From an uncultured bacterium (GTDB lineage Bacteria > Acidobacteriota > Thermoanaerobaculia > Multivoradales > JAHZIX01), in NCBI GenBank assembly GCA_965368975.1, contig CBDUPA010000016.1, positions 64,001-128,000 of the forward strand: 64,000 nucleotides of DNA, written 5' to 3'. The notes below the pieces were generated by a model, which saw nothing but the letters and a program-made list of their open reading frames with translations, searched no databases and had not been told where the DNA came from. Position 1 is the first letter of the stretch; the number at the start of each line of letters is the position of its first letter. The position numbers were made by a program, and so were the translations under genes. Shown piece after piece: positions 4,535 to 33,250 of the stretch.

Positions 4535-4592
4535 ACCGGCATCCTCACCCGTGGAGGTGCGCCAATCAACCCCCTATCCGCAGAGGGACACG

Positions 4593-9155: not shown

Positions 9156-9232
9156 CTTTCCAATCCTCAAGTCAGGTCAAACAAGGTACGGCGTCGGTTC
9201 GCTGTCGAATCAGGGTGGCGTTTCTGGCTGCC

Positions 9233-12200: not shown

Positions 12201-13570
12201 AGCACCACCAGGTGCTGCTCGCGCGCCGCTCCGGCGGCCTCGCGCGGCGGTGCTTCTTCCATCACCACGTGGGCGTTGGTGCCGCCGACGCCGAACGAGC
12301 TGACGCCACCGCGGCGCGGCAGGCCCCCCTCGGGGTTCCAGTCACGCAGCTGGGTGTTGACGAAGAAGGGACTGCCCTCCATTTGCAGCTTGGGGTTCGG
12401 CTTCTCGTAGTGCAGGCTCGGCGGCAGCTGCTGGTTCTGCATCGACAGCACCGTCTTGATCACACCGGTGACACCGGCGGTGGCGTCCGTGTGGCCGAGG
12501 TTGCTCTTGATCGAACCGAGGGCGCAGAAGTGCTGGCGCTCGGTGGTGGCGCGGAAGGCCTGGGTCAGTGCCTCGAACTCGATCGGGTCGCCGACCGGCG
12601 TGGCGGTGCCGTGCGCTTCGATGTTGGTGATCGTGTCGGCGTCGACCTCGGCCAGCGCCTGCGCCATGGCGATCGCCTTGGCTTGGCCCGGCACGCTGGG
12701 CGCCGAGTAGCCGACCTTGGCCGAGCCATCGTTGTTGACCGCCGCGCCGCGGATCAGCGCCAGGACCGTGTCGCCGTCGTCGACCGCGTCCTCGTAGCGC
12801 TTGAGGCAGATCACGCCGACCGCGTTGCCGGGGAGTGTGCCGGTAGCGCGATGGTCGAAGGTGCGGCAGTGACCGTCGGTAGAGAAGTAGCCGGCCGGAT
12901 CGTAGATGTAGCCACACTTCTGCGGCACGCGGACCGAGGCGCCGCCGGCCAGCGCGATGTCGCACTGGTAGTTGAGCAGGCTCTGGCAGGCCGTGGTGAT
13001 GGCCACCAGCGACGTCGAGCAAGCGGTCTGGATGTTGAGACTGGGGCCGCGCAGGTTGAGCTTGTAGGAGACGCGTGTGGTGAGGTAGTCGTTCATGCTG
13101 CCGATGGTCGACTGCATCTCACCGGCTGCCGAGTCATCGAGCCGCGCCAGACCGGTACCGTTGAGGTACGAGCTGGGCGTCGCACCGGCGAACACACCGA
13201 CCGAGCCCTCGTAGGTCGACGGATCGTAGCCCGCGCGCTCCAGCGCTTCCCAGCAGCACTCCAGGAAGAAGCGCTGCTGCGGGTCCATCATCTCGGCTTC
13301 CTTGGGCGAGAAGTTGAAGAAGGCGGCGTCGAACTTGTCGATGTCCGGCAGGATCGAGGCAGCGCCGACGTAGTTCTCGTCGTCGATCATCGCTTCCGGC
13401 ACGCCATCGGCGATCATCTGCTCACGGGTGAAGAAGGTGACCAGCTCGTCGCCGTTCTTCAAGTGCTGCCACAACTCGTCGAGGTCACGGCTGCCCGGAT
13501 AGCGGCCGGCCATGCCGACAATGGCGATGGTCTGCATCGGGTCGAAGTCACTGTTGTGTTCGGTACTCAA
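9233..13570 (-). CDS. Type I PKS KS-(degenerate AT)-(degenerate KR)-ACP
   Basis: KS: QTACSTSL, EAHGTAT, KSNLGHT. The AT site reads GQGLG instead of GHSxG. The KR region has FGSSRG and no catalytic Tyr. ACP: FFELGGDSL. TTG at 13570 follows GAGGAG. Confidence 0.9.
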   Translation of the reverse strand: MSTEHNSDFDPMQTIAIVGMAGRYPGSRDLDELWQHLKNGDELVTFFTREQMIADGVPEAMIDDENYVGAASILPDIDKFDAAFFNFSPKEAEMMDPQQRFFLECCWEALERAGYDPSTYEGSVGVFAGATPSSYLNGTGLARLDDSAAGEMQSTIGSMNDYLTTRVSYKLNLRGPSLNIQTACSTSLVAITTACQSLLNYQCDIALAGGASVRVPQKCGYIYDPAGYFSTDGHCRTFDHRATGTLPGNAVGVICLKRYEDAVDDGDTVLALIRGAAVNNDGSAKVGYSAPSVPGQAKAIAMAQALAEVDADTITNIEAHGTATPVGDPIEFEALTQAFRATTERQHFCALGSIKSNLGHTDATAGVTGVIKTVLSMQNQQLPPSLHYEKPNPKLQMEGSPFFVNTQLRDWNPEGGLPRRGGVSSFGVGGTNAHVVMEEAPPREAAGAAREQHLVVLSARTASALDTMTRNLAAHLRAHPDLPLAEVAHTLAVGRSAFEHRRGIVVSDGGQLLSALEAPAERMQNAVCEPAERPLAFVFNGDTGSVAQGLPVGLFELLRQEGSDALAEDDPALEALQSPPSDSAPALVLAEVALASLLRAWGHAPRAAAGQGLGMLAAACDAGALSLDDALKLASAHKNGNLGDALAGVSWNDPSHALLDRDGRTLDAAALANVQTWNALLGPGAQEPPTGALAALLAEPGRTFVEIGPGRTLTDALTPKLNTGSDSDGTPLQGQSAIPTLPGDGPLRDLVNAILQLWISGREPQWSAFYAGQQRQRVELPTYPFERKSFWPATAPAGAGAQVAQLTAAAQAQVTSGGAQGPGLYEGRWQLQPIPGDAGGGEQADWLVFLDEHGIGSYIVDRLREQNQLVVGVTAADAFLKVSGSAYTMNPSDPNGYALLMGAMLPPRRPPLKVLHMWNLAGSTFVQQPWLIPEWGFQGLLRAAEHIQQSDGSLPPVEIISVANQQVELFAEGTVPRKSTALGALEAVAEAYPGVRCRLIDIDAPSEDADHKRRLAKDLLREVTSNRSEMLVAWRHRQRWVHDFAPASLPDAETGVSDLNERLRAGSVCIVFGSSRGPAPAIAQFLLRRAGAQVALVLPAGDQPQGDVATWLRSTFGSDGNNAPDASTGGPVLGRNGDASLLRADVSDVGQVMATLKWTNETLGEVRGLVFAADAAYPALLRDELQLDTVEATGAELEKLVEGLLMVDSAQGGKPVDFMLFASQSSVQADGRRRALERASKAFLDAYTHGRRTVHPGDLSTAIHFQGWQTADLAPQMQASDDNSRVEETLARVLSRDVAQTELVLSAGDPAELRQQRATGTGEATGFVAAKGHPRPELINPYQEPTTELQKQVVAIWERVLGIDGIGVTDNFFELGGDSLTSLRVMKLMQRELGTDTSAIVLFESPTIEAVCRVVDPDTEGEDDEEDLFAKARAQGARRRGRRRR

Positions 13571-13743
13571 GGCGCTGCTCCTCAAGGAAACCCCAGGTCG
13601 CGAGCCGTGCCGCTGCAGGTCAGGCCGCGCGAGGCCGGGAGGTCAGGTCCCGGGCCAGGGAAGAATCGGGTCGTTCAAGATCGGATCAGGTCATTCGGGC
13701 AATCGAGCCATTCAGGTTAATTCAGAGTCTCGGGCGGATCGAA

Positions 13744-15144
13744 TCAGTCGTCGTCCTCGGGCGGCAGCTCCCAGGCCTCGGCCCCCAGCGTCACCGGTTG
13801 CCGGCTCTCCTGGGCGTTGTACGCATCCCAGTCGATCCTGACACCGGCCAGCCAAAGTCGCGACACCGTGGAATGCAGCCAGCGCGACGCCGGCAGGGTG
13901 TCGCCGGGGTGTGGAATCGACGTCAAGTGCTGCTCGTCACTCTTCTCGGTCGTGCTCGGCGCCTGCGCCGCCAGCGTGGTCAGCGCGCGTCCGGGGCCCG
14001 CTTCGAGCAGGATCTGGCGCGTCTGTCCGGCGCGTACCGTCGCCAGGCCATCGGCGAAGCGCACCGTCTCGCGCAGGTGGCGCACCCAGTAGTCGGGGTT
14101 GAGCGCTTCGGCGTCAGTGGCCCAGGTGCCGGTGACGTTGGAGAGATACGGGATGGTGGGCGACGACAGGTGCAGTCCATCGTGCAGGCTGCTGCGGAAC
14201 TCATCCAGGATCGGGTCGACCATGGTCGAGTGTCCCGCGGCCTTGATGGCCAGCATGCGCACCTCGTGGCCGCGCAGTTCCAACATCGCCTGCAGCTCTT
14301 GTACCCGCTCTTCCGGTCCCGAGACGACGCAGCGCGCCGGCCCGTTGACCGCCGCGATGTCCAAGCCGCCGAGCAGAGGTCGCACCTCGGCCTCCGGCAT
14401 CGGCACGCTGAGCATGGCGCCGCCCGGCAGGTTCTCGATCAGTCGTCCGCGCAGCGCCACCAGTAGCACCGCGTCGTCCAGCGTCAAGACGCCGGAGAGA
14501 TTCGCCGCCACGTACTCACCCAGGCTGTGCCCGAGCATCGCCCGCGGTGTCACGCCCCAGGACAACCACAGCTTGGCCATGGCGTACGAGGTCGAGAACA
14601 GTGCCGGCAAGGCGACCGACGTGCGCCGGATGGCGGCCTTGGCGGCGTCGAGATGGGCTGGGTCAGGGTAGAGCGTGCCACGCAGGTCGAAACCCAGGTG
14701 CGGTTCGAACAGCTCGGCACAGCGGTCGATCTCGCGTCGGAACACGGGCTCGGAAGCGTACAGCTCGACGCCCATGTTGACGTACTGGGTGCCGCCGCCC
14801 GGGAACAGGAAGACCACCGGTAGCTCGTTTTTGCGCAAGGCCGTGCGCAGTCGCTGCGGGTCACGCTCGTCGAGAGCGCCGATGGCGTCGCCGTGCTGCT
14901 GGAAGAGCAGTGCCGCTCGGTGCGACAACCCTCGCTCGCCACGCTGGAAGGCGTACGCGACGTCACCTGCTGCCAGCTCGGGATGGTCCTCGACGAAATT
15001 GGCCACCGCGTCCGCGGCGTCGTCGAGGCCCTCGACACCGTCGCCGGAAAAGGGCAACACATGCCAGGAGCGTGCTTCCACAGAAGGAAGCTCCGCCACC
15101 GGTCGGATCCTCGGATCCGCCGTCGGATTCTGGCCTTCGCTCAT
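13744..15144 (-). CDS. Stand-alone PKS acyltransferase with KS-AT linker remnant
   Basis: VFLFPGGGTQY, GHSLGEY active site, IAAVNGP, AAGHS, YWVRHLRETVRF, LEAGPG. No KS or ACP. Confidence 0.9.
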   Translation of the reverse strand: MSEGQNPTADPRIRPVAELPSVEARSWHVLPFSGDGVEGLDDAADAVANFVEDHPELAAGDVAYAFQRGERGLSHRAALLFQQHGDAIGALDERDPQRLRTALRKNELPVVFLFPGGGTQYVNMGVELYASEPVFRREIDRCAELFEPHLGFDLRGTLYPDPAHLDAAKAAIRRTSVALPALFSTSYAMAKLWLSWGVTPRAMLGHSLGEYVAANLSGVLTLDDAVLLVALRGRLIENLPGGAMLSVPMPEAEVRPLLGGLDIAAVNGPARCVVSGPEERVQELQAMLELRGHEVRMLAIKAAGHSTMVDPILDEFRSSLHDGLHLSSPTIPYLSNVTGTWATDAEALNPDYWVRHLRETVRFADGLATVRAGQTRQILLEAGPGRALTTLAAQAPSTTEKSDEQHLTSIPHPGDTLPASRWLHSTVSRLWLAGVRIDWDAYNAQESRQPVTLGAEAWELPPEDDD

Positions 15145-17570: not shown

Positions 17571-19313
17571 TCAGAGGTGCAGCCAGTCGTTGAGCGCGCC
17601 GCGGACGAAGAAGGTCTTGACCGCCTTGCGCGCGACCCACTTCCAGCCGAGATCGAGCGTGATCTGGTCATAGCGCTCGAGCAGGGCGTCGCGCAGGTCG
17701 CGCCGCGAGTACTCGTCGACGTCTTCGATGCCGACGTCGGGGAAGGTCCGGTGCCAGCTGTCGGGGATGTCGTAGTCCTGGTGAATGCTCGGATCTTGCG
17801 GTGGCATCGCCGGCGGGTCGTCCGGGTCCGCCGGTTCGTGCCCATAGGAGGCGCCGAGGATGCCCTGCAGCGCCTCGAACGCCTGCGTGCGGCCGATCCG
17901 GTAGTCGTACTCGCGCCAGTCTTGCTGGAAGAAACCGATGAAGCCGGCGAACTCGTCGCCCGCGAGGCGGCTGTCACTGACGCCGATCTGGTGCATGTTG
18001 ATTTCGGATTTGTCGGCCAGGTGCGAAATATAATTCAGGATAAGGGTCGTCAAGTTGAGGATTCTTCGTTTTTCGGCGCTTTCGAGCTGGGCTGATGCGG
18101 CGTCGATGACCGGCACCTCGCGCACGGCGCGCAGACTGCGGTCGAGGTCCAGGTCGACGCCGGTGCGGGCGGCTTCGGTCGCCAGGACGTCGCTGGCCAG
18201 GCGTTCTAGTTGTTCCGCGTAGGACTGACTCTGAGACGTCGGCAGCTGGTCCAGCAGGCCACTCAGCTGCTCGACCAGGCGATCGCGCCAGCCGATCTCG
18301 ATGTTGTGACGCCCGGCGCGCATCCAGTCGCGCGCCGTACTCTCGCCGCGGATCATCTGGAGCAGGCGCCAGCCATGCTGACGCAAGGTGCCGTCGGAGG
18401 AGATGTCGGCCTGGTGCCGGGACCGGTTGATGCTCGGATCGACCAGCAGGTAGATACGGTCGGGATTGGCGCCGCCGTCCGCCTGGCGGGCGCGGTCGAT
18501 CGCTTCGCCCAGCGGTTCGTTGTTGAACAGGCCGCCGTCGATGAAGCACAGGCCGCGCTCGAACAGCGCGGAGTCTTTCCGCTCCAGGGCATCCGGATAG
18601 GCGGCGATGGGACGCACCAGCTGTTCCGGCTGGAAGGCCAGCGGGAAGTTGCCACAGGCGACGGCGGTGCGCGCCAGGTGATCCCAGCTGCTGGCGATGC
18701 GTTCCGCCGCGGTGGCATGGAAGGCGTGCACGCGGTCGTCGCCGGCATCGTGCTCGATCTCGAAGCGACCCATGTCCGAGAACAGGGTAGTGACGAAGCT
18801 GTTGCCGGCCAGCGCGGGCACGGCATAGGTCATGCCGTGCATGTTGCTCAGCGACAGCGACAAGCGCAGCACCTCGGGCGCGAAGCTGGCCGGAGTCACC
18901 GGTGGCTGGTCGGCGTCGCTCAGCACCAGGTTGTGGATGATCTCGAACAGGGCCTGCTTGGAGAGCAGCGCGTTGGTCGGCGCCTTGTCCAGGAGCTTGC
19001 GGATGTCGATGTCCCGGACCCAGGCGCGGTGCAAGTGGCGCCGTCGCCCGGGTAGGTCGTACATCAGGATCCGCGCCGCCAGCGCCGCCGTCATGCCCCC
19101 GGCCGAGCCGCCGGTCATGACGTCCAGCTCGTAGTGGATGCCGGTCGCCCGCGTGCGGCGGTTCAGCGTGTCGAGAGCGTAGAGCAACTCCGTCACCACG
19201 CCCGCTTCGAAGCTGCCGAGCGACACCCCGCCGGCCATCACCAGTGCAATCTTGACGGTGCGGACCGACGGATCGTCGAATGTCGGTGTGTTCTCGCGTT
19301 GTTGATCGGGCAT
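17571..19313 (-). CDS. Patatin-like phospholipase family protein (paralog 1)
   Basis: AGGVSLGSF oxyanion motif, TGGSAGG nucleophile elbow, FIDGGLFNN. Confidence 0.88.
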   Translation of the reverse strand: MPDQQRENTPTFDDPSVRTVKIALVMAGGVSLGSFEAGVVTELLYALDTLNRRTRATGIHYELDVMTGGSAGGMTAALAARILMYDLPGRRRHLHRAWVRDIDIRKLLDKAPTNALLSKQALFEIIHNLVLSDADQPPVTPASFAPEVLRLSLSLSNMHGMTYAVPALAGNSFVTTLFSDMGRFEIEHDAGDDRVHAFHATAAERIASSWDHLARTAVACGNFPLAFQPEQLVRPIAAYPDALERKDSALFERGLCFIDGGLFNNEPLGEAIDRARQADGGANPDRIYLLVDPSINRSRHQADISSDGTLRQHGWRLLQMIRGESTARDWMRAGRHNIEIGWRDRLVEQLSGLLDQLPTSQSQSYAEQLERLASDVLATEAARTGVDLDLDRSLRAVREVPVIDAASAQLESAEKRRILNLTTLILNYISHLADKSEINMHQIGVSDSRLAGDEFAGFIGFFQQDWREYDYRIGRTQAFEALQGILGASYGHEPADPDDPPAMPPQDPSIHQDYDIPDSWHRTFPDVGIEDVDEYSRRDLRDALLERYDQITLDLGWKWVARKAVKTFFVRGALNDWLHL

Positions 19314-19412: not shown

Positions 19413-21074
19413 CTACTCGTCCGGCAGCTCCAGTAGCTTGCGCAAGCGCCCGCGCGCCCACAGCTTCAAAGGCAGCTGGGCGGCCTCCGGCAGATCCAGA
19501 TCCTCGAAGCTCTGCTTGGCGACGAGCATCAGCTGCTCGCACAGCTGGAGGCGTATCTCTTCGTCGGTGTTGGCGATGGTGAACTCGTTCGGCGGAACAG
19601 GGGGCGGTCCCGGCTCCGCGGGCGCTCCGAAGGCGGCGAGAGCGCGCGGAAAGTGCTCGTCCAGGATCTTGGGAACGTCGCGCCGGGCCATGAACTCGCC
19701 GACGGCGAAGTCGTGCTGGCGCAGTTTCTTATCAAAGAAGCCGAGCAGGCCGAAGAACTCCTCGCCCGCCAGCTCGTCCGGGTCGGCGCCGACCAGGCCC
19801 AAGCGCAGGTCGGCTTTGTTCTGCAGGCCCGCGGCATTGTTCAGGACGAAGGTGCATAGATGGAAGATTCTTCGTTTATCTGCGCTCTCGCCTGCAATAT
19901 GTGCGGCTGTCTGGAGTTTCACTTGACGATCCTGCAGTTTCAGGCTGTTCTCTAGGTAGTCCTCGGGATAGCGTGTGAGGCCGAACAACTGGCGCTTGTG
20001 CTCGACGATGTCGCCCGCCAGCTGCCCCAGGCCCTCGAGCAGTTGCAGGTCGGTTTCCGCCGAGCTGCCGGCGATCAGGTGGGCGAGCTGCTCGCTCAGG
20101 CCGTCGCGCCAGTCGAGTTCCTGGTTACGCCGGCACACGCGCAGCCACTCGCGCGCCAGGCTCTGGTCGCGGATCACCGAGGCGATGCGCCGGAGCTGGT
20201 CGGGCAGGCTCGACTCGGAGTTCAGCTCCGGGTCGTGGCGCGACGAGTCGAGCTTGGGGTCGACGAGCAGGAACAGGCGTCGATCGTCCGGGCCTCCGTC
20301 GGCCTCGCGCGCCAGCCGGATCGCCTCGCCCAGGGGCTTGTTGTCGAACAGGCCACCGTCGATGAACGCCAGGCCCTGCTGCAGTAGCTCCAGGTTGTCC
20401 ACTTCGCGCGCGCCTGGATAGTCGTCGACGTTGCGGGCCAGCGTCTGCGGTTGGAAGGCGATCGGCAGGTTGGCGCATGCCATGGCGGCGTTGCCGACGC
20501 GGTGCCAGTCGGTGTCCTCGGGCGCGTCGCGCCGCACCAGGAAGTGGGCCACGTCCTTGAACACCGTGGTCACGAAGTTGCGCCCCTTGCCGCGGCCGAT
20601 CGGCAGGAAGGGCAGCTCGTAGGTCATGCCCTGCAGGTTGCTCAGCGTCATGCCCAGGCGCAGCAGCTCGGGCGTGCAGGAGAACGGTCCGCCGTTGCCG
20701 GGCAGCACTGCCTCCGGGCCGCGCAGCAGTCCTGCTTGCAAGATCTGCTCGATGATCTTCTTGGAGAAGGCCGCGTTCTTCGGCGGATCGGTGAGCAGGT
20801 GGCGGACGTCGATGTCGCGCACCCAGGAGCGATACAGCGGATTGCGCTCCGGCTGCTCGTTCGGGGCCGGTCCATCCTGCAGGTAGCGCGCGGTCAACGC
20901 TCCGACTACGCCGCCCGCCGAGGCGCCGGTGATGATGTCGATCTCGAAGTGGTGCGGACCTTCGGCATTGCGCTGTTCCAGCTGCCGCAGCAGCTCGGTG
21001 ACGACGCCGGATTCGAAGGCTCCCAGCGAGCCGCCGCCGGCCAGGATGAGCGCGATCTTGTGGGTATGGGGCAT
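19413..21074 (-). CDS. Patatin-like phospholipase family protein (paralog 2)
   Basis: From ATG 21074 (MPHTHKIALILAGGGSLGAF), TGASAGG and FIDGGLFDN. Collinear with paralog 1. The upstream part of the track ORF overlaps menE and is rejected. Confidence 0.88.
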   Translation of the reverse strand: MPHTHKIALILAGGGSLGAFESGVVTELLRQLEQRNAEGPHHFEIDIITGASAGGVVGALTARYLQDGPAPNEQPERNPLYRSWVRDIDVRHLLTDPPKNAAFSKKIIEQILQAGLLRGPEAVLPGNGGPFSCTPELLRLGMTLSNLQGMTYELPFLPIGRGKGRNFVTTVFKDVAHFLVRRDAPEDTDWHRVGNAAMACANLPIAFQPQTLARNVDDYPGAREVDNLELLQQGLAFIDGGLFDNKPLGEAIRLAREADGGPDDRRLFLLVDPKLDSSRHDPELNSESSLPDQLRRIASVIRDQSLAREWLRVCRRNQELDWRDGLSEQLAHLIAGSSAETDLQLLEGLGQLAGDIVEHKRQLFGLTRYPEDYLENSLKLQDRQVKLQTAAHIAGESADKRRIFHLCTFVLNNAAGLQNKADLRLGLVGADPDELAGEEFFGLLGFFDKKLRQHDFAVGEFMARRDVPKILDEHFPRALAAFGAPAEPGPPPVPPNEFTIANTDEEIRLQLCEQLMLVAKQSFEDLDLPEAAQLPLKLWARGRLRKLLELPDE

Positions 21075-21160
21075 GGTCTGGTTCCTGTCGAAGACGGGGT
21101 TCCGGTCGGAGGTTCGAGTTGGAACGTCGGATCCGCTGGCCGGGTCCGGGCGTTCGGAAG

Positions 21161-24890: not shown

Positions 24891-27800
24891 ATGCTTGATC
24901 CAATAACTCTGACGATTGTAACCGGAGCTGCGGGCAATCTCGCAGCGGCGGCTGTTGCTTACTCTGCGGGCAAGATCAAGGAGCGTTTTGACCGAGACGC
25001 TGCACTCGAGCGGGCTTTGAATTCTTGCTGCCAGGCTGGTTTGACTGCCTTGATTCTCAGTGCCAAGCAGCAGGTGCCACAGTTCGACGATGTTGTCGAG
25101 CTTGGGTTTCGGGAGGCTCTCGAAGGCGAGAAGCTCATAGATGGCTTCGGGTCTCGCTTGCGCCGGGTCCTGCGCGGCAAGTCTCTGGAAGTCGATGACA
25201 TGGCCGATCTCTTCCAAGATCATGGGTTCGACCTTTCGAAGGTCCCAGGTCTGGATCTGGAGGTCAGCTTCCGCGAGTTCGAGGCGGTGTTTCTCGAGAG
25301 AGCTGTACAGGAAGACATCCTTCGCAAGGAAGCAGAGGCGTACCAGAGTCGCAAACGAACGCAGCTTCTGGAGCGGGTCGTTGAGTTGCTGGAGGCGGGG
25401 CAGAAGACGATAGTTGAGTCTTCGCAGCCACGTCAGAACACAGATGCAAAGCAGGCCCACGACCGCTATCTCGAACGCCTGATTCGCGACTGCCAGGGGC
25501 TGGCCTTAGCGGAGCTGGGTGGACAAGGTGATGCGACATCGAAGGTCAAGTTGGACGATGTGTATGTGGATCTGCTGACGAAGAGCCGCATCGAGCTGAC
25601 GCCGGAGGAGAAGAAGGAACGTCGCTCTCGCCACAAGAAGGACCGCCCTCTCACGGCCTTGGAAGCAACGGCCCAGACTCCGCACCTCGTCTTGCTCGGT
25701 GATCCCGGCAGTGGCAAGAGTTCGTTCGTTCGCCATCTGACGGCGCGACTGGCGCGAGCACGCCTGGACGGAGCGGAAGCGTACGAGGGCACCCGCGACC
25801 TGCTGCCGATCTTCGTCATTCTGCGGCGCCTGGTGCCTCACCTGCGGAACCTGAAGCTGAAGGGCTTGACGAAGGATCGGCGCCAGCCGCTCTTGCTCGA
25901 TGCGCTGAAGGAAACTGTCCTGGAGTTCGTGGGCGAATGTGATGCTAAAGCATTCGGGGAGGCGGCACGGGATGCCCTGGTGGACGGCAAGTGCTTCTTG
26001 GTGCTGGACGGCCTGGACGAGGTGCCGACGGACCTTCGCCCGGCAGTCGCGGAGACGGTGGCGGCAGCGGTGGAGAAGTATGCCTTGCCGCGGGTGATCG
26101 TCACCTGCCGCGTGCGGTCCTACCAGAGCGGTGCCGTACTGACCGGCTTCCAGGACCACGAACTCGCGCCCTTCACGAAGGAGCAGGTACAGCGTTTCGT
26201 GGCGGGTTGGTACGGGGCGCAGCAGCGGCACGGGCACGTGACCTCTGCTGAGGCCAAGGAGCGCACGGAAGATCTCCAGCAGGCGGCCGGTGGGCTGCAC
26301 GAACTGGCGCAGAATCCGATGCTGCTGACCACGATGGCACTGATTCATCAGCAGAACATCGGCCTGCCGCGCCAGAAGGTGTTGCTGTACGACGAGGCGG
26401 TGAAGGTGCTGCTGGTGCGCTGGCAGAAGCGCATTGGATTTGCCGGGGCCGTCTCGGGAGAACTGGCCGAGGTGCTGCAAGATGCGACGCGGATCCGGCC
26501 GGTATTGGAACGGTTGGCGTTTGAGGTGCACTTGGCCGAGGAGGCGGATGCTGCAGCGGAAGAGCAGGGCGAAATGTCGGGGCTGGACTGGGGGCGGATC
26601 GTCCAGATCTTGAAGGAAGACAAGTACCTCGGCTCGACCTCACTGGCAGAGGCGTTCCTCGACTACGTGGACCAGCGCGCCGGGATCTTGGTGGGACGAG
26701 GGGGTGGTCCGGGCGAGCCGCTACGCTACAGCTTCCCGCATCGGACCTTCCAGGAGTACCTGGCCGGCTGCTACTTGGTCGCCGAAACGGACGATGCCGT
26801 GGGCGCGGTATACGAGCGGGCAGCAGCCGGGGACTTCTGGTACCTGGCGGTGCAGCTGGGAGCGGAAGAGTTAGTCTACAGTCGGCGCTTTCCGTCCTTG
26901 GTCCAGCGGCTGGCGCTGGGCCTGTACCCGTCGGGTGGCAAGCGAGATGAGTCGGCGCGGCGGGCGAGCCTGTGGGCTACTTGGATGGCGACGCTGCTGG
27001 AGGCGCAGCCGGGCGGGGTGGCGAGCAGCGGACCGGAGAGCTGGAAGAGCTTTCTAGGCCGGTGTCGGAAGCGGCTATGTGCGCTGCTGGGCAAGGGGCT
27101 GCCTGTGCGGGAGCGAGTGGAGGTGGGACGGTTGTTGGCCAAGCTCGGAGACCCGCGGCCGGAGGTGATGACGGTGGAGGGGATGGAGTTCTGCCGCGTG
27201 CCGGCGGGGCCGTTCTGGATGGGCAGTGATGACTCGGACGAGCTTGCCTTCGGTGATGAGAAGCCGATCACACGGCAAGAGGTGAACTACGACTACTGGA
27301 TGGCGCGCTACCCAGTGACGCAAGCTCAGTTCCGGCTGTTCGTGGAGGCCGGCGGTTACCGGGACTACCGCTACTGGTCGGAAGCCCAGGCCGCCGAGCG
27401 CTGGATGGCGGAGACTGGGTTCGATCGGCGACAGGGGCCGGTCTCGTACGGAGAGCGCTTCGACTTGTCGAATCACCCGGTTGTCGGGGTGAGTTGGTTC
27501 GAGGCGTTGGCGTTCACGCGTTGGCTGACGGCGGAGTACCGCGAACGAGGCTGGCTGCCGGATGGTTGGTGCATCTCTCTGCCCTCGGAGTTGGAGTGGG
27601 AGAAAGCGGCCCGTGGCGGGGAGCAGGTGCTCGTATCTGCGCTTGGTGAGGGTATTGAAATGGTGCAAGGGTGGATCTGTAAAGCACTTCAGGCCGAGCA
27701 GCAAGAGAACCCGGAACCTCGCCGGTTCGTTCCGTGGACGGGTGGTTTCGAAGCGGATCGGCTGAACTGGAGTGGGCAGCGGCTAGGCGCAACGTCGGCA

Positions 27801-28109
27801 CCGGGGCTGTTCCCGAAAGGCAGCAGCCCGGTGGGCTGCGAGGAGATGTGCGGCAACGTCTGGGAGTGGACGCGCAGCATCTGGGGCGAGGTCCCTTATC
27901 CTACAGCCGCTGCGGATCGACGAGATAGAGAGGATTTTTCGAATTCAAGCGAGTTCCGCGTCTGGCGTGGCGGTTCGTTCGCCGACTATCGGCAAGGCGT
28001 GCGCTGCGCCTACCGCTACAGGGGTCCTCCGGACTTCCAGTTCTTCGACGTGGGTTTTCGTGTTGCGCTCCTCCCGTTATCTCTGAACTCTGAAGACTCT
28101 GAACTCTGA
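24891..28109 (+). CDS. DGR target 1: N-terminal helical domain + NACHT NTPase + FGE-sulfatase-like (CLec fold) domain with C-terminal VR
   Basis: Walker A GDPGSGKS, Walker B VLDGLDEV, VTCR, NPMLLT, FPHRTFQEYLA. FGE motifs VPAGPFWMG, RYPVT, HPVVGVSW, LPSELEWEKAARG, GNVWEW, RGGSF, GFRV. Confidence 0.95.
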   Translation: MLDPITLTIVTGAAGNLAAAAVAYSAGKIKERFDRDAALERALNSCCQAGLTALILSAKQQVPQFDDVVELGFREALEGEKLIDGFGSRLRRVLRGKSLEVDDMADLFQDHGFDLSKVPGLDLEVSFREFEAVFLERAVQEDILRKEAEAYQSRKRTQLLERVVELLEAGQKTIVESSQPRQNTDAKQAHDRYLERLIRDCQGLALAELGGQGDATSKVKLDDVYVDLLTKSRIELTPEEKKERRSRHKKDRPLTALEATAQTPHLVLLGDPGSGKSSFVRHLTARLARARLDGAEAYEGTRDLLPIFVILRRLVPHLRNLKLKGLTKDRRQPLLLDALKETVLEFVGECDAKAFGEAARDALVDGKCFLVLDGLDEVPTDLRPAVAETVAAAVEKYALPRVIVTCRVRSYQSGAVLTGFQDHELAPFTKEQVQRFVAGWYGAQQRHGHVTSAEAKERTEDLQQAAGGLHELAQNPMLLTTMALIHQQNIGLPRQKVLLYDEAVKVLLVRWQKRIGFAGAVSGELAEVLQDATRIRPVLERLAFEVHLAEEADAAAEEQGEMSGLDWGRIVQILKEDKYLGSTSLAEAFLDYVDQRAGILVGRGGGPGEPLRYSFPHRTFQEYLAGCYLVAETDDAVGAVYERAAAGDFWYLAVQLGAEELVYSRRFPSLVQRLALGLYPSGGKRDESARRASLWATWMATLLEAQPGGVASSGPESWKSFLGRCRKRLCALLGKGLPVRERVEVGRLLAKLGDPRPEVMTVEGMEFCRVPAGPFWMGSDDSDELAFGDEKPITRQEVNYDYWMARYPVTQAQFRLFVEAGGYRDYRYWSEAQAAERWMAETGFDRRQGPVSYGERFDLSNHPVVGVSWFEALAFTRWLTAEYRERGWLPDGWCISLPSELEWEKAARGGEQVLVSALGEGIEMVQGWICKALQAEQQENPEPRRFVPWTGGFEADRLNWSGQRLGATSAPGLFPKGSSPVGCEEMCGNVWEWTRSIWGEVPYPTAAADRRDREDFSNSSEFRVWRGGSFADYRQGVRCAYRYRGPPDFQFFDVGFRVALLPLSLNSEDSEL
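27951..28073 (+). repeat. DGR variable repeat VR1
   Basis: 123-bp ungapped match to the TR with 20 mismatches at TR adenines, 2 non-A mismatches in CAC-AAC and a TT>CG change near the 3' end. Confidence 0.95.
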
Positions 28110-28134
28110 ATCTCTGATCTGGCAAAGGGGGAGC

Positions 28135-28156
28135 CCGAGGGGGCTTGCCCCCTCGG
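28135..28156 (+). other. DGR target hairpin/cruciform downstream of VR1
   Basis: CCGAGGGGG-CTTG-CCCCCTCGG; an identical copy follows VR2. Confidence 0.85.
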
Positions 28157-28181
28157 AGGATTGTGGTATCTTCTGCGCGCA

Positions 28182-28535
28182 ATGAGTCGACCGGAGATGC
28201 CAATCTTCGTCCGTAGCTTCGATTTCTTGACTTGGTTATTGCCTCTTACCAATCACTTTCCACGTGCCCACCGGCACACAGTTACGCAGCGTCTCCTGAA
28301 TGCTGCCTTCGATCTACGAGAGTGCCTGGAAGCAGCGAACACGCGGCTGGGTCCTGAGCGGTTAGAGTTTCTGGTAGAGGCTGATGTCGCGTTGGGGCGA
28401 GTCAGGACCTACTTGAGGCTGGTGGAGAAATGGCAGTGGATATCGCCGGGTCAGTATGAGCACGCGGCGCGAATGGTCGCGGAGATCGGCAGGCTCCTCG
28501 GAGGTTGGAAGAAGACAGTCTTGCCTCGAACTTAG
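28182..28535 (+). CDS. avd: DGR accessory variability determinant (bAvd-like four-helix bundle)
   Basis: 117 aa, MSRPEMPIF...FPRAHR...[11 protein letters not shown], located between the VR and the TR. Confidence 0.9.
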
Positions 28536-28585
28536 GCGACAGTTCCCGGCGTCTGACGCCGGTTTCTGTGGGGATTCGCCCGAAG

Positions 28586-28708
28586 GAGTTCCGCGTCTGG
28601 CGTGGCGGTTCGTTCGCCAACAATCACAACAACGTGCGCTGCGCCTACCGCAACAGGAATCAACCGAACAACCAGAACAACAACATGGGTTTTCGTGTTG
28701 TTCTCCTC
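28586..28708 (+). repeat. DGR template repeat (TR)
   Basis: Copy of the VR with 11 AAC/AAT codons and 30 adenines in 123 bp, between avd and RT. Confidence 0.95.
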
Positions 28709-28842
28709 ACATTCTCCGATCGCCGGAACTTCCTGGCGGGTCTCCGACCTTTCAGGCCGAGGCGGAAAATGGCGGGGTGGGTTCCCGGCCGCATCCGGGC
28801 AATGTACACAACTGAGCCTTGCTCGGATCGGGCATATAGGTA

Positions 28843-29958
28843 GTGGCTCCGCCTCCTGGCTCCGGCCTGAGGCGGGGCGAGTTCGCCTCGGAGTTCGACC
28901 ACCTTATCGAGTGGTCGAATCTACGCCTCGCCTACCGCAAGGCCAGCAAGGGCAAGCGCGGCCGGTCCGATGTGGCCGCATTCGAGCTGTGCCTCGAAGA
29001 TAACCTCTTGGACCTGCAAGCCGACCTGCAAGCCAGAACCTATCGCCCCGGCGGCTATCGAAGTTTCTTTATCCACGAGCCAAAACGTCGGCGCATCAGT
29101 GCCGCACCGTTTCGGGATCGCGTAGTGCACCACGCGCTGTGCAACGTGATCGAGGAGCGCTTCGAACGCTCGTTTGTTTCTGAGAGTTTCGCCAACCGAG
29201 TTGGCAAGGGTACCCATCGAGCGCTCGAACACGCCCAAGACTGTGCGCAGCGATTCCGTTTCGTCGTCCAACTCGACATCCGGCAGTTCTTCCCCAGCAT
29301 CGATCACGAGATTCTGTTCGCGTTGCTGCGGCGGAAGATCGAAGACTCCGCAGTGCTCTGGTTGATCGGGCTGATCCTGGCCTCGGGAGAGGGAGTGCTG
29401 GCGGACGAGTACGATCAGGTCTTCTTTCCGGGTGATGATCTGTGGGCTGCGTTGCGACCGAGGGGCTTGCCCATTGGCAACTTGACCAGTCAGTTCTGGG
29501 CCAATGTCTACATGAGCGGTCTGGATCACAAGATCAAGCGGCAGCTGCGTTGCCGGGGGTATGCACGCTACGTAGACGACCTGCTCTTGTTCTCGAACAG
29601 CAAGCGTGAGCTGTGGATGTGGAAAGGGGCGCTGGGGGCGGAGCTGGAGCGCTTGAGGCTGAAGGTTCATCCCGGCGTGCAACCACGGCCGGTGCCAGAA
29701 GGTGTTCCGTTTTTGGGCTTCGTGATCTATCCGCACAAGCGCCTGCTCAAGCGGCGCAAGGCGGTGCACTACCGGCGACGTTTGCGGGGCAAGCTGAGGG
29801 CCTCGACTCAGGCAGAAGAGCCGTTGCGGCAGAGCGTGCAATCGTGGTTGAATCATTGCCGATACGGGAACACGTTTCATTTGTGTGCGAAGCTCCTGGC
29901 GGAGGCTGGAGTTAGCTGCGAGTTGTGGCCGGAGGAACTGGCCGCCCATGATCTGTGA
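28843..29958 (+). CDS. DGR reverse transcriptase
   Basis: 371 aa with PKRRRISAAPFRDRVVHHA, GKGTH, LDIRQFFPSIDH, RGLPIGNLTSQFWAN (DGR-type motif), RYVDD and PFLGF. No endonuclease domain. Confidence 0.95.
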   Translation: MAPPPGSGLRRGEFASEFDHLIEWSNLRLAYRKASKGKRGRSDVAAFELCLEDNLLDLQADLQARTYRPGGYRSFFIHEPKRRRISAAPFRDRVVHHALCNVIEERFERSFVSESFANRVGKGTHRALEHAQDCAQRFRFVVQLDIRQFFPSIDHEILFALLRRKIEDSAVLWLIGLILASGEGVLADEYDQVFFPGDDLWAALRPRGLPIGNLTSQFWANVYMSGLDHKIKRQLRCRGYARYVDDLLLFSNSKRELWMWKGALGAELERLRLKVHPGVQPRPVPEGVPFLGFVIYPHKRLLKRRKAVHYRRRLRGKLRASTQAEEPLRQSVQSWLNHCRYGNTFHLCAKLLAEAGVSCELWPEELAAHDL

Positions 29959-30010
29959 GGGTAAGTTGTTCGAATTCGTTTACTAACGATTGAGTCTTCA
30001 AGAGGTTCAC

Positions 30011-33000
30011 ATGACGGACCCTTTTTCCAGCATTCTGATCGGCGCCGCCGGTAACGTCACCGCCGGTCTGATTTCCTCCTCCATCGGTGAAGTCGGGGCG
30101 TGGCTCAAGGGAGATGCGGAGCGCGAAGCGGCGCTGAACCGAGCTACACAGACGGGACTGGCCGCCCTCCTGGTCAAGGCCAAGGGGCAGGCCCCGGACC
30201 TGTCCGATCACGTCGAGACTGCCTTCCAGCTGCCCTTGCGCCATCCGGACCTGATGGCGGATCTCGGTAAGCTGCTGCAGGTGGCGCTGCGCGGCCGAGA
30301 GTTCGACAGCGAGACCGGAGCACGCCTGTTCAGGGAATACCAGTTCGATCTCGCGGATCTACCGGGCCTCGACCTGCAGGAGTGCTTGCGCGAGCTAGAG
30401 GCGGCGTTCATCGAGACCGCTGACCGCCAGGAGGTCCTGCAGACCGAACTGCTGACCTTCCACGCCCGCCGGCACTCGCAGTTGCTGGAGGAGGCTGTGG
30501 CGCTGCTGCGGCGCATCGGAACGGCGCCTGCGGGGCTCGCTGGTGCGGCGGACGCAGAGACGACGCGTCAGTTGTACCTCCAGCAACTGGCGAGGCATTG
30601 CCAGGCGCTGCCGTTGGCCGAGCTGGGTGGCAAGGGGCAGGGGTTGACCAAGGTGCGGCTTGGCGATGTCTTCATCGAGCTGAACACCCAGACGCGGATC
30701 CCGCGGACGCCGGAAGAGAAGAAGGTCTTCGAAGAAGAGCACGGCTACCCCTCGGATGATCGCCTACTGACCGCCGAGCAGGCCGCGGACCGGCACCCGC
30801 AGCTGGTGCTGCTGGGCCACCCCGGTAGCGGCAAGAGTTCGTTCATCCGGCATCTGGTGGCACGGCTGGCGGCTCCGGGGCCGGCTGCCCCCGCACCGCC
30901 GTGGGCGGAGGGATTGCTACCGGTCCTGCTCGTCTTGCGCCATCTGGCGCCCCTCCTCGCCCGGCTCGAGCTTGACTCGCTCGACCTGGAGCAACGGCGG
31001 CAGCGGCTGGGCGAGGCGCTGCAGGCGGCCGTGGTCGAGAGCGCCAGGCTGTGCGGTGCGGAAGCCTTCGGGGAGAGGCTGCGCGAGGCTCTGATCAGCG
31101 GCCGCTGCCTGCTGGTCCTGGACGGGCTGGACGAGGTGCCGGCGAAGCTGCGACCGATCGTCCGGCGCGCGGTTGAGGCCGCGCTGCAAACCTACAGCCT
31201 CGCCCGCGTGATCGTGACCTGTCGGGTCCATTCCTACCAGGGCCGGGCGCAGCTGCCGGACTTCACCGTCCACGAACTGATGCCGCTGACTTCCGGCCAG
31301 GTCGAGCGCTTCGTAGAGGTGTGGTACCACGCCCGCCACCTCCACGGGTATGTCACCGCGGCGGAGGCCGAAGAGCGGGCCGAAGACTTGAAGCGCGGGG
31401 CGCGGGGCCTGCTTCAGCTGGCGGACAATCCGATGCTGCTGACCACGATGGCCCTGGTCCACCAGCAGAATATCCGGCTGCCGCCGCAGAAGGTCTGTCT
31501 CTACCACGAAGCGGTCAAGGTGCTGCTGGTGCGCTGGCAGGAAAGCAAGGGGCTGATCCGGGAACTGGCTCCGCGGCTGGTCGAGATCCTGAACGAGGAC
31601 GGCCGCATCCGCCCGGTGCTGGAGCGGCTGGCCTTCGAGATCCACCGCAGGGAGCAGGAGGTGGGTGAGAGCGAGGAGTCCGGCCTGGAATGGGAGCGGA
31701 TGCTCAAGATTCTCAAGGCACCGGTGTACCTGGGTTCGACATCCCTGGCGGAGGCCTTCCTGGAGTACGTCGATCAGCAGGCCGGGATTCTGGTGGGTCG
31801 CGGTGGGGGACCGGACGACGCGTTGCGCTACAGCTTCCCGCATCGCACCTTCCAGGAATACCTGGCTGGCTGTTATCTGGTCAGCCAGTCGGAACCGGTG
31901 ACGGAGATCTATCAGCAAGCGGCGGCCGGCGACTTCTGGTACCTACCCGTGCAGCTGGCGGCGGAAGAACTGCTGCACAACCGCCGAGTTCCTCAATTCC
32001 TGCTGCGCATCGCGGTGGGTCTGTTTCCGGTGGGCGGCAAGCGCGATCAGCCGGCACGACGTGCCAGCCTGTGGGCGGCTTGGATGGCGGCCCTGCTGGA
32101 AGCGCAGCCGGGTGGAGTGACGAGCAGCGGCCCAGAGAGTTGGAAGAGCTTTCTGGCGCGCTGTCGCAAGCGGTTGGTCTCGCTGTTGGGCAAGGGGCTG
32201 CCGGTGCGGGAGCGCGTGGAGGCGGGACGGTTGCTGGCCAAGCTGGGGGATCCGCGGCCGGAGGTGATGACGGTGGACGGGATGGAGTTCTGCCGCGTGC
32301 CGGCGGGGCCGTTCTGGATGGGGAGTGAGGAACAGCCGTCAGTCGCTTACCACAAGGAGACTCCGATCACGCGCCAGGAAGTGGACTACGACTTCTGGAT
32401 GGCGCGCTATCCGGTGACGCAGGCGCAGTTCCGGCGGTTCGTGGACGCGGGGGGCTATCGCGAGGCACAGTTGTGGGCGGAGGCGCAAGCCGCTGAGTAC
32501 TGGACGGCGGAAGCAGGATTCAAGGGCCGTCTGGGGCCGGTCTTGAAGGGAGAGCCGTTCGACTTGCCGAATCACCCGGCAGTGGGGGTGAGCTGGTTCG
32601 AGGCGCTGGCGTTCACGCGCTGGCTGACGGCACGGGCGTGGGACGAAGGCTGGTTACCGTCCGGGTGGCGGGTGGCGTTGCCGTCCGAGTTGGAGTGGGA
32701 GAAGGCGGCGCGGGGTGGGGAGCAGGTGCCGGTCTCGGTGGTCCGAGCCCGGCTGGAGGTGGTGCGCGAAGGGCTCGGGAGGCTGGATGGCGAGCTGGTA
32801 GAGAACCCGGAACCGCGTCGCGTCTATCCGTGGGGCGGGGACTTCGATGCGGACACGGTGAATTCTCACGGCCGTCTAGGCGGCACCTCGACGCCAGGGG
32901 TGTTTCCACAGGGGGCGAGCCCGGTGGGCTGTGAGGAGCTGAGCGGTACGGTGTGGGAGTGGACGAGGAGCAGCTTGGGCGAGTATCCCTATCCCGCCGA

Positions 33001-33202
33001 TCCCGAGGGTCGCCGAGACATAGAGAATATTTCGAATGTTAGTAAGTCTCGCGTGGTGCGCGGTGGTTCGTGGAACGACAGTCTCACCTACGTGCGCTGC
33101 GCCTGCCGCTTCGGCTGGCGTCCGGGCGTCCAGGACTTCAACTGCGGTTTTCGTGTTGTTCTCCTCCCATCCACTCTGAACTCTGTCTTCTCTGAGCTCT
33201 GA
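30011..33202 (+). CDS. DGR target 2: N-terminal helical domain + NACHT NTPase + FGE-sulfatase-like (CLec fold) domain with C-terminal VR
   Basis: ATG 30011 after a GAGG SD. GHPGSGKS, VLDGLDEV, FPHRTFQEYLA, LPSELEWEKAARG, GTVWEW, RGGSW, GFRV. Collinear paralog of target 1. Confidence 0.95.
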   Translation: MTDPFSSILIGAAGNVTAGLISSSIGEVGAWLKGDAEREAALNRATQTGLAALLVKAKGQAPDLSDHVETAFQLPLRHPDLMADLGKLLQVALRGREFDSETGARLFREYQFDLADLPGLDLQECLRELEAAFIETADRQEVLQTELLTFHARRHSQLLEEAVALLRRIGTAPAGLAGAADAETTRQLYLQQLARHCQALPLAELGGKGQGLTKVRLGDVFIELNTQTRIPRTPEEKKVFEEEHGYPSDDRLLTAEQAADRHPQLVLLGHPGSGKSSFIRHLVARLAAPGPAAPAPPWAEGLLPVLLVLRHLAPLLARLELDSLDLEQRRQRLGEALQAAVVESARLCGAEAFGERLREALISGRCLLVLDGLDEVPAKLRPIVRRAVEAALQTYSLARVIVTCRVHSYQGRAQLPDFTVHELMPLTSGQVERFVEVWYHARHLHGYVTAAEAEERAEDLKRGARGLLQLADNPMLLTTMALVHQQNIRLPPQKVCLYHEAVKVLLVRWQESKGLIRELAPRLVEILNEDGRIRPVLERLAFEIHRREQEVGESEESGLEWERMLKILKAPVYLGSTSLAEAFLEYVDQQAGILVGRGGGPDDALRYSFPHRTFQEYLAGCYLVSQSEPVTEIYQQAAAGDFWYLPVQLAAEELLHNRRVPQFLLRIAVGLFPVGGKRDQPARRASLWAAWMAALLEAQPGGVTSSGPESWKSFLARCRKRLVSLLGKGLPVRERVEAGRLLAKLGDPRPEVMTVDGMEFCRVPAGPFWMGSEEQPSVAYHKETPITRQEVDYDFWMARYPVTQAQFRRFVDAGGYREAQLWAEAQAAEYWTAEAGFKGRLGPVLKGEPFDLPNHPAVGVSWFEALAFTRWLTARAWDEGWLPSGWRVALPSELEWEKAARGGEQVPVSVVRARLEVVREGLGRLDGELVENPEPRRVYPWGGDFDADTVNSHGRLGGTSTPGVFPQGASPVGCEELSGTVWEWTRSSLGEYPYPADPEGRRDIENISNVSKSRVVRGGSWNDSLTYVRCACRFGWRPGVQDFNCGFRVVLLPSTLNSVFSEL
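33077..33166 (+). repeat. DGR variable repeat VR2
   Basis: 90-bp ungapped match to the 3' part of the TR (28619-28708) with 21 mismatches at TR adenines and 4 non-A mismatches. Confidence 0.9.
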
Positions 33203-33228
33203 AGCTCTGATCTGAGAGGTGGGGGAGC

Positions 33229-33250
33229 CCGAGGGGGCTTGCCCCCTCGG
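33229..33250 (+). other. DGR target hairpin/cruciform downstream of VR2
   Basis: CCGAGGGGG-CTTG-CCCCCTCGG within GGGGAGCCCGAGGGGGCTTGCCCCCTCGGAGGAT, shared with target 1. Confidence 0.85.

Follow-up and report, generated by a model that had tools for sequence, protein, structure and literature searches.

A chromosomal diversity-generating retroelement that very probably rewrites two NLR-like proteins in an uncultured member of the Acidobacteriota

Diversity-generating retroelements (DGRs) with two targets that join a signal transduction ATPase with numerous domains (STAND) to a C-type-lectin (CLec) domain are common in clade 5D of the DGR reverse transcriptases (RTs); many such targets have uncharacterised N-terminal extensions, and antigen sensing or kin recognition has been proposed for them (Doré et al. 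2024, PMC10907252). Bacterial NACHT proteins of the FGS type have been classed as 'antigen receptor type' and as likely to be diversified by DGR RTs, and NNH domains are listed among the NACHT-associated domains (Kibby et al., bioRxiv 10.1101/2022.07.19.500537). DGR-linked FGS domains have also been described in conflict systems (Kaur et al. 2020). Here we describe a locus of this kind at positions 24891-33250 of a 64,000-nucleotide stretch of DNA (the window; positions 64,001 to 128,000, forward strand, of contig CBDUPA010000016.1 in assembly GCA_965368975.1) from an uncultured bacterium. We consider it very likely that the locus is a complete chromosomal DGR, consisting of avd, a template repeat (TR) and an RT gene, that is flanked by two paralogous target genes and rewrites the CLec sensor tips of proteins resembling NOD-like receptors (NLRs).

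Because DGRs with two STAND-CLec targets are common in clade 5D (Doré et al. 2024, PMC10907252), the locus belongs to a kind already described, and the precedent claimed for it in the initial annotation is a real one: that study reports such an architecture as common in one DGR clade. With clade 5D DGRs, for example DGR 3 of Thiohalocapsa PB-PSB1 (Doré et al. 2024, PMC10907252), it shares an N-terminal extension without a characterised domain and the presence of several DGR loci in one genome, a likeness of architecture; Thiohalocapsa DGR 3 has a peptidase neighbour, and none like it was found at our locus. The 'antigen receptor type' of Kibby et al. has the same succession of an N-terminal domain, NACHT and a single FGS/FGE domain. 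The passages of that study covered here report no FGS-type bacterial NACHT protein tested against phage, whereas at the present locus the TR, both variable repeats (VRs), avd and the RT gene are mapped explicitly. What is added here is the Acidobacteriota host, two more RT loci with SIR2- and Mrr-NACHT-CLec genes, and a TCTG array with a hairpin that follows the VRs only. The string 'Acidobacteri' has no occurrence in the main texts, supplements excluded, of Doré et al. 2024 (PMC10907252) and Wu et al. 2018 (PMC5758913), and our results extend the system to the Acidobacteriota (Thermoanaerobaculia). DGR-diversified NLR-like sensors may be the closest proposed bacterial analogue of an anticipatory antigen-receptor repertoire, their function being itself a proposal, and the present locus offers a compact case of them, in a genome whose two other RT loci bear targets with SIR2 and nuclease domains.

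The template repeat, its two variable repeats and the predicted mutagenic machinery

Positions 24891-33202 are filled by four plus-strand open reading frames (ORFs) of 1072, 124, 371 and 1070 aa in the ORF list. The order target1-avd-TR-RT-target2 on one strand, first proposed from the letters and the ORF list, was borne out by the ORFs, the domain matches and the TR/VR alignments, and all parts (avd, TR, RT, two targets and the candidate acceptor-site elements discussed below) map within 8.4 kb. The principal features are as follows; FGE stands for formylglycine-generating enzyme.

24891..28109, + strand: target gene 1, 1072 aa; Pfam NACHT at residues 266-441 (36.4 bits, cut-off 26.7) and FGE-sulfatase at 766-1059 (E 2.7e-46)
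24891..25400, + strand: N-terminal all-helical domain of target 1, residues ~1-170 (PF22734 in relatives, AlphaFold2)
27186..28067, + strand: FGE-type C-type-lectin domain of target 1 (Pfam, model, Foldseek)
27951..28073, + strand: VR1, ungapped against the TR; 20/30 A changed, 4/93 non-A changed
28161..28535, + strand: avd; NCBIfam NF033474 82.2 bits (cut-off 80), Pfam bAvd PF22296 67.8 bits (cut-off 40)
28586..28708, + strand: TR, intergenic, in the gap between avd and the RT gene; 30 A, 11 AAY codons, no stop-capable codon
28843..29958, + strand: DGR reverse transcriptase, 371 aa (PDB and phage matches, tree, motifs)
29990..33202, + strand: target gene 2, 1070 aa, paralog of target 1; Pfam NACHT at 272-448 (28.7 bits, cut-off 26.7) and FGE-sulfatase at 767-1057 (E 2.2e-43)
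33077..33166, + strand: VR2; 21/29 A changed, 4/61 non-A changed

The pattern of differences between the TR and its two VRs speaks for a DGR. When the 123-nt TR was scanned against both strands of the window with any change at TR adenines tolerated, a single match was returned, at 27951, with 99 identical positions, 20 changes at A and 4 others; the 89-nt 3' core of the TR also matches at 33078. The 24 mismatches of VR1 and the 25 mismatches of VR2 against TR 28619-28708 are strongly biased toward adenines (Fisher p = 4e-12 and 2e-10, respectively). The computed alignments reproduced the counts that the initial annotation had read from the letters, namely 20 mismatches at adenines and 4 others without gaps for VR1, and 21 and 4 over 90 bp for VR2. 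They likewise reproduced its description of a TR with 30 adenines, 11 AAY codons and no stop reachable by substitution of A, and the lack of adenine bias that it had named as evidence to the contrary was not seen. Across all 123 nt, VR2 has 16 non-A mismatches, of which 12 fall within the 5' 33 nt, and we therefore take VR2 to be about 90 nt long; 5' boundaries that vary from one target to the next have been reported for multi-target DGRs (Wu et al. 2018, PMC5758913). An adenine-tolerant scan of the genome (7.13 Mb, both strands, at least 43/61 non-A positions matching) found no TR matches besides the TR, VR1 and VR2, in agreement with the proposal that one TR serves two VRs.

The codons open to A-driven recoding number 18 in VR1 and 17 in VR2, a stop is never reachable, and the accessible protein repertoire is ~1e17 for VR1 and ~2.5e16 for VR2. 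Of the 1072 residues of target 1, VR1 encodes 1021-1061, which lie within the FGE-sulfatase match at the C-terminal end of a CLec-fold protein. The 3' block that is identical in VR and TR ends at CTCCTC, beyond which VR and TR diverge, an asymmetry of the type seen between the initiation of mutagenic homing (IMH) element and its counterpart IMH*.

The enzymes are those expected of a DGR. The RT carries LPIGNLTSQ at residue 209 and YVDD at 243; the motifs IGNLTSQ and YVDD are typical of DGR RTs. Its best match in the PDB is 8ub7_A (2.3e-53, 184.8 bits), deposited with an Avd chain in what we take to be the bRT-Avd complex of a Bordetella phage, and in the same sequence search the group II RT 6ar1_A (2.8e-22, 82.5 bits) and a retron-type RT (2.6e-16, 62.9 bits) rank far lower. 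The avd gene adjoins the TR, as is expected of a DGR accessory protein; its product's best solved relatives are Bbp7 (PDB 4dwl, 2.1e-5) and the Avd chain 8ub7_B (1.6e-4), and the 124-aa protein is the sole Avd match in the genome. The combination of Avd, TR and an RT with these two motifs, as first noted, is therefore present, with the motifs located and Avd above its NCBIfam cut-off.

We have to ask whether the RT could instead be of a group II intron, retron or defence type, with the likeness of TR and VRs no more than ordinary paralogous repetition. Its best NCBIfam model is indeed group_II_RT_mat, no DGR RT model is among the matches, and RT models of PADLOC match too. However, its score against the group II model (~121-122.5 bits, 122.5 at best) lies far under the 300-bit cut-off, and the genome's true group II RTs score 415 and 421. 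A quick maximum-likelihood tree of 17 rows, with a retron-type RT as outgroup and long branches flagged, groups the RT with eight RTs from related NACHT-CLec loci (Shimodaira-Hasegawa-like approximate likelihood ratio test, SH-aLRT, 95). It splits this clade, together with three phage RTs and the RTs of two further loci of this genome on contigs C15 and C9, from the genome's two group II RTs (SH-aLRT 100). With the PDB ranking and the tree both placing the enzyme among DGR RTs, mismatches concentrated at TR adenines (p<=2e-10) and Avd adjoining the TR, we regard this alternative as practically untenable; a grouping with group II introns or retrons, which had been named as an outcome that would overturn the DGR assignment, did not emerge from the PDB ranks, the tree or the group II score.

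The DGR of the Bordetella phages BPP-1/BIP-1 (mtd-avd-TR-brt) is the natural point of comparison. The two elements have in common the order avd-TR-RT, a CLec-fold target whose gene carries the VR at its 3' end, adenine-specific mismatches, AAY-rich TR codons and detectably homologous RT and Avd proteins; in both, a GC-rich inverted repeat lies behind the VR but not behind the TR (Wu et al. 2018, PMC5758913). They differ in that ours is chromosomal, with two STAND NTPase targets predicted to be intracellular, whereas the Bordetella DGR is phage-borne and diversifies a tail-fibre protein. Moreover, unlike the phage element, ours has a TCTG array between VR and hairpin, and its hairpin lies ~61 nt after the VR end. 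Bordetella phages are the source of the nearest phage RTs (the best of 155 phage records), and the BIP-1 record has an annotated tropism-switching VR beside the RT match, so that one might suppose a prophage DGR that switches receptor tropism as in those phages. We find this vanishingly improbable: the Bordetella phage RTs are just 34-35% identical to ours (over 94% of its length), the targets, 1070 aa long, are NACHT proteins rather than tail fibres, and a domain scan of the cassette's neighbours in the window turned up genes for MscS, patatin-like lipases, an enoyl-CoA hydratase and a chorismate-binding enzyme but none of phage type.

The NACHT-CLec targets and their paralogs in the genome

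Aligned end to end, the two targets share 58% identity. Target 2 has 1070 aa if it starts at the TTG at 29990; starting at the in-frame ATG at 30011 gives the recorded form of 1063 aa. Target 1 consists, in order, of an N-terminal helical domain, NACHT (PF05729), a helical linker and a CLec domain of the FGE type. The NACHT domain of each target has Walker A GDPGSGKS, which starts at residue 270, and FLVLDG, at residue 369, in the manner of Walker B. Modelled with AlphaFold2, the C-terminal 332 residues have a predicted local distance difference test score (pLDDT) of 92.9 and a predicted template modelling score (pTM) of 0.92. Foldseek matched this CLec model to 82 PDB chains at E<=0.001, led by EgtB and FGE with TMq up to 0.62, and the identification of the targets as NACHT joined to an FGE-type CLec, already made at the outset, now has Pfam scores above cut-off and fold matches behind it. 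Across 44 homologs, the 18 positions with A-containing TR codons average 3.07 bits of Shannon entropy and the other 23 VR positions 0.94 bits (Mann-Whitney p 6e-7); this contrast means that the family is hypervariable exactly where the TR can rewrite it, while a scaffold of R-G-G, RCA, P and GFRV is kept around the variable positions.

We assign the N-terminal domain with less confidence. A phmmer search over 1.84 billion representatives gave 121 relatives at E<=1e-3, and PF22734 (NNH2) is found at E<=0.001 in 37 of 67 aligned sequences (the query and 66 relatives). An NNH2 cluster in the ESM Atlas scores 0.91, which we treat as a lead only, and AlphaFold2 predicts an all-helical bundle with pLDDT of at least 90 across residues 1-170. 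The domain of target 1 is thus probably a divergent NNH2, and the targets show the tripartite layout of STAND/NLR proteins: an N-terminal helical domain (NNH2-like), a NACHT NTPase and a variable CLec sensor. For a pore-forming helix of the HeLo or CC type we found nothing but one borderline hydropathy window (1.64), and we rejected that candidate; the same window is the nearest approach to a membrane segment, neither target having a clear one.

By the Bordetella-phage paradigm, RT and Avd would copy TR RNA into cDNA, misincorporating opposite template adenines, and the cDNA would then replace the 3' end of the target coding sequence, ~120 nt at VR1 and ~90 nt at VR2. A ligand bound at the variable face could cause the NACHT domains to oligomerise and the N-terminal domain to act as an effector or adaptor. 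Such an 'antigen-receptor type' bacterial NACHT system would most likely serve in defence against invaders. More generally, adaptive-immunity-like sensing or kin recognition, the role suggested in the initial annotation, may be the function of the targets, a proposal made also by Doré et al. 2024.

The genome has two further RT loci, on contigs C15 and C9, in each of which an HTH_17 ORF stands in place of Avd and the flanking genes encode one SIR2-NACHT-CLec and one Mrr-NACHT-CLec protein. It also has a third full-length paralog of the targets.

C15:1-14000 (L009), 2002-5733 (+), 6040-7053 (-), 7118-7636 (-) and 8041-11523 (-): RT and HTH_17 ORF between the Mrr- and SIR2-NACHT-CLec genes
C9:133000-147000 (L010), 2377-5886 (+), 6516-7532 (+) and 7833-11561 (-): duplicate of the C15 locus, 82-86% identical
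C10:223775-227089 (in L011), - strand: third full-length paralog, 51% identity to the targets, no RT nearby

Like the focal locus, the C15 locus has an RT between two NACHT-CLec targets and an A-biased TR/VR pair: compared with its TR (~7190-7345, minus strand), the VR of the SIR2 target is changed at 9/27 A and at 0/125 non-A positions, and the VR of the Mrr target is 12 nt shorter with 12 non-A mismatches. It differs in its RT (38-39% identical), in having the HTH_17 ORF for Avd, and in its targets, which are convergent and have recognisable enzymatic N-termini whereas the focal targets are co-directional. No TCTG run was seen in the short stretch after its VRs that was inspected by eye and without a count. 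The C9 locus is without the ~350-bp TR region present on C15, and both of its VR-like ends show a 12-nt gap and 7-11 non-A mismatches against the C15 TR; the locus is either served in trans or decayed. The C10 paralog was considered as a remote third target of the focal DGR and rejected: with 34 mismatches at the 90 non-A TR bases it bears no adenine-specific relation to the TR, it has no copy of the hairpin and no TCTG array in the 3' flank inspected, and it seems not to be diversified. The genome also carries a nearly identical pair of RT/maturase genes of group II introns, at C45:13604-14686 (-) and C2:335718-336800 (-), scoring 421 and 415 bits against the cut-off of 300.

The SIR2 and Mrr nuclease N-termini at the other RT loci fit a defence role. 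They also bear on a different function, in which the NACHT-CLec proteins would recognise kin, discriminate self from non-self or provide tunable signalling instead of conferring immunity to phage. Kin recognition was raised by Doré et al. 2024 (PMC10907252) by analogy with the NLRs of fungal heterokaryon incompatibility, and it would suit an N-terminal domain that is not a recognisable enzymatic effector and a neighbourhood free of phage genes. It is harder to reconcile with SIR2 and Mrr nuclease domains fused to NACHT-CLec genes beside both other RTs, and with a sensor for which we saw no predicted export signal (no dedicated signal-peptide search was made) or clear membrane segment; we think it unlikely, but not negligibly so.

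Several observations weigh against the reading of the locus as a DGR that diversifies NLR-like defence proteins. Concerning the targets, the NACHT-linker part has 0 matches at E<=0.1 among PDB sequences, PADLOC gives no significant defence-system match for either target and weak P-loop matches only, Pfam finds nothing in either N-terminal domain even at E 10, and the N-terminal model has no Foldseek match in the PDB at E<=0.001 (best E 1.4). The part of effector or adaptor is given to this domain tentatively, from its position. Among the neighbours we saw no conserved effector, the upstream patatins being without a counterpart in 95 related loci. Concerning the retroelement, the RT tree is small (17 rows), made by a quick method and has long branches. 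Each VR has four non-A mismatches, which could be changes that arose after retrohoming stopped or the outcome of non-canonical mutagenesis. Exact-pattern scans of metagenome contigs with the hairpin region and the 3' part of the TR returned no population variants, records of this genome itself perhaps lying outside the collection.

The last two points can also be set down in favour of a relic, a cassette intact in sequence but with retrohoming stopped and its VRs frozen records of past diversification. The loss of VR2 homology in the 5' 33 nt, with its 12 non-A mismatches, points the same way, and the missing TR region of the C9 locus shows that such decay happens in this genome. On the other hand, the ORFs of the RT, avd and both targets are uninterrupted and YVDD is present, the TR retains its 30 A and no stop-capable codon, and the elements behind the VRs are conserved, with a 22-nt hairpin identical at both. 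Furthermore, non-A differences within one DGR have been reported and perhaps represent an added mutagenic capability (Wu et al. 2018, PMC5758913). We therefore doubt that the cassette is a relic, although the case for one is far from trivial, and we continue to favour a DGR that rewrites its two NLR-like targets.

A repeat array and hairpin behind the variable repeats

Each VR is followed by two elements, a TCTG repeat array and a GC-rich inverted repeat.

28081..28121, + strand: TCTG (CTCTGAA) repeat array after VR1, covering the stop codon; 6 TCTG in 70 nt against 0.27 expected
28135..28156, + strand: GC-rich inverted repeat after VR1, 9-bp stem and 4-nt loop
33174..33214, + strand: TCTG repeat array after VR2; 6 TCTG in 70 nt against 0.27 expected
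33229..33250, + strand: GC-rich inverted repeat after VR2, identical to that after VR1

At both VRs the array is built of five CTCTGA(A/G/T) units with one more TCTG at the end, laid over the stop codon, and the 22-nt hairpin starts 61-62 nt past the VR end. A search of the genome for further VRs with the same hairpin, as the initial annotation had suggested, returned the 22-mer at two places only, after VR1 and after VR2. The TR has 0 TCTG in the following 70 nt, its 3' flank holding degenerate versions of the motif only.

The same distribution is seen more widely. Over 10 loci, the 70 nt after 18 VRs contain 67 TCTG against 5.7 expected, whereas those after 10 TRs contain 5 against 3.3 expected; the VRs within a locus are paralogs, so these statistics overstate independence, which tells against the reading of the array given below. 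The array is present in 9 of the 10 loci, L030 being without it, and the pattern of array and hairpin recurs at related loci whose surrounding sequence differs (L014, L021, L022, L036, L037, L041, L047 and L056). At loci with RT/Avd, 19 of 22 CLec C-terminal ends have at least 3 TCTG in 80 nt, compared with 18 of 42 ends at loci without a detected RT, and among the latter the 15 most distant homologs all have none. The element is kept across Acidobacteriota, Chloroflexota, Pseudomonadota and other phyla, and the neighbouring sequence is not. Neither a narrow literature search (supplements outside it) nor the parts of Wu et al. 2018 (PMC5758913) that were covered yielded any mention of such a TCTG repeat.

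Because array and hairpin are present at the recipients and not at the donor, we read them as part of target-site recognition, and from this VR-only distribution the TCTG array and GC hairpin probably mark acceptor sites. More tentatively, and with somewhat less than even confidence, we suggest that the YTCTGR array with its hairpin is the acceptor-site signal of this Avd-type cellular DGR lineage, a repeated protein- or cDNA-docking element that would separate VR from TR and would extend or replace the short IMH/IMH* difference of the Bordetella phage. If this is true, appending the array could turn any gene into a target of this DGR. The conserved VR-specific TCTG element is a testable candidate for a target-recognition signal, which would also be useful for engineering DGR targeting.

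Relatives in other genomes and the genomic neighbourhood

Of 8000 candidates scored, 449 proved related to target 1 at E<=1e-5, and most of these have the NACHT-to-CLec part in common and a different N-terminus. We kept 80 related loci from named genomes, mostly of Chloroflexota, Rhodothermales and Bacteroidota with one deltaproteobacterial metagenome-assembled genome, and found an RT and/or Avd, at 38-66% identity, in at least 14 of them, a lower bound because many contigs are short. Clean A-biased TR/VR pairs were present in 9 of the 14, several with two or three VRs, and one locus from the Chloroflexota (L021) has the identical order VR-avd-TR-RT-target-VR.

The host itself belongs to the Acidobacteriota, class Thermoanaerobaculia: the best named relatives of its rpoB product, 85-87% identical, carry the label Thermoanaerobaculia or Acidobacteriota, which supports the earlier guess of a probable acidobacterium. 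Within the host's order, RTs at least 50% identical to ours were found in 3 of 60 genomes, the nearest at 51-59% identity and none a close ortholog with which the VRs might be compared. That the cassette is patchy, with its nearest kin in other phyla, fits horizontal spread, and the GC content of the cassette (0.59-0.68, against 0.66-0.72 in the flanks) lends this weak support. One genome of the host's order (G047) has six DGR RT matches, three at 51-59% and three at 38% identity.

Upstream of target 1, at a distance of 3.8 kb and with the MscS channel gene in between, lie two tandem patatin-like phospholipase genes, 17571-19313 (-) and ~19413-21125 (-), that are mutually 40% identical; the listed 978-aa ORF of the second is too long at its 5' end. 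We considered the patatin lipases as DGR-linked effector neighbours and rejected them, since the upstream patatin used as query (PLP1) is matched at none of 95 related or paralogous loci, and elsewhere in the genome by its tandem paralog alone.

Elsewhere in the window, a further STAND NTPase of 1120 aa is encoded at 50288-53650 (-), with an nSTAND1 match of 75.9 bits, an FNIP-repeat match, no FGE domain and no DGR link. A polyketide synthase cluster occupies 4593-15144 (-) and comprises two megasynthase genes containing a ketosynthase (KS) domain and a separate acyltransferase (AT) gene; one of the megasynthase genes carries AT, an acyl carrier protein (ACP) domain and a luciferase-like monooxygenase. 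Finally, the protein encoded at 56308-59046 (-) has 912 aa and contains an eCIS_core domain (88.2 bits).

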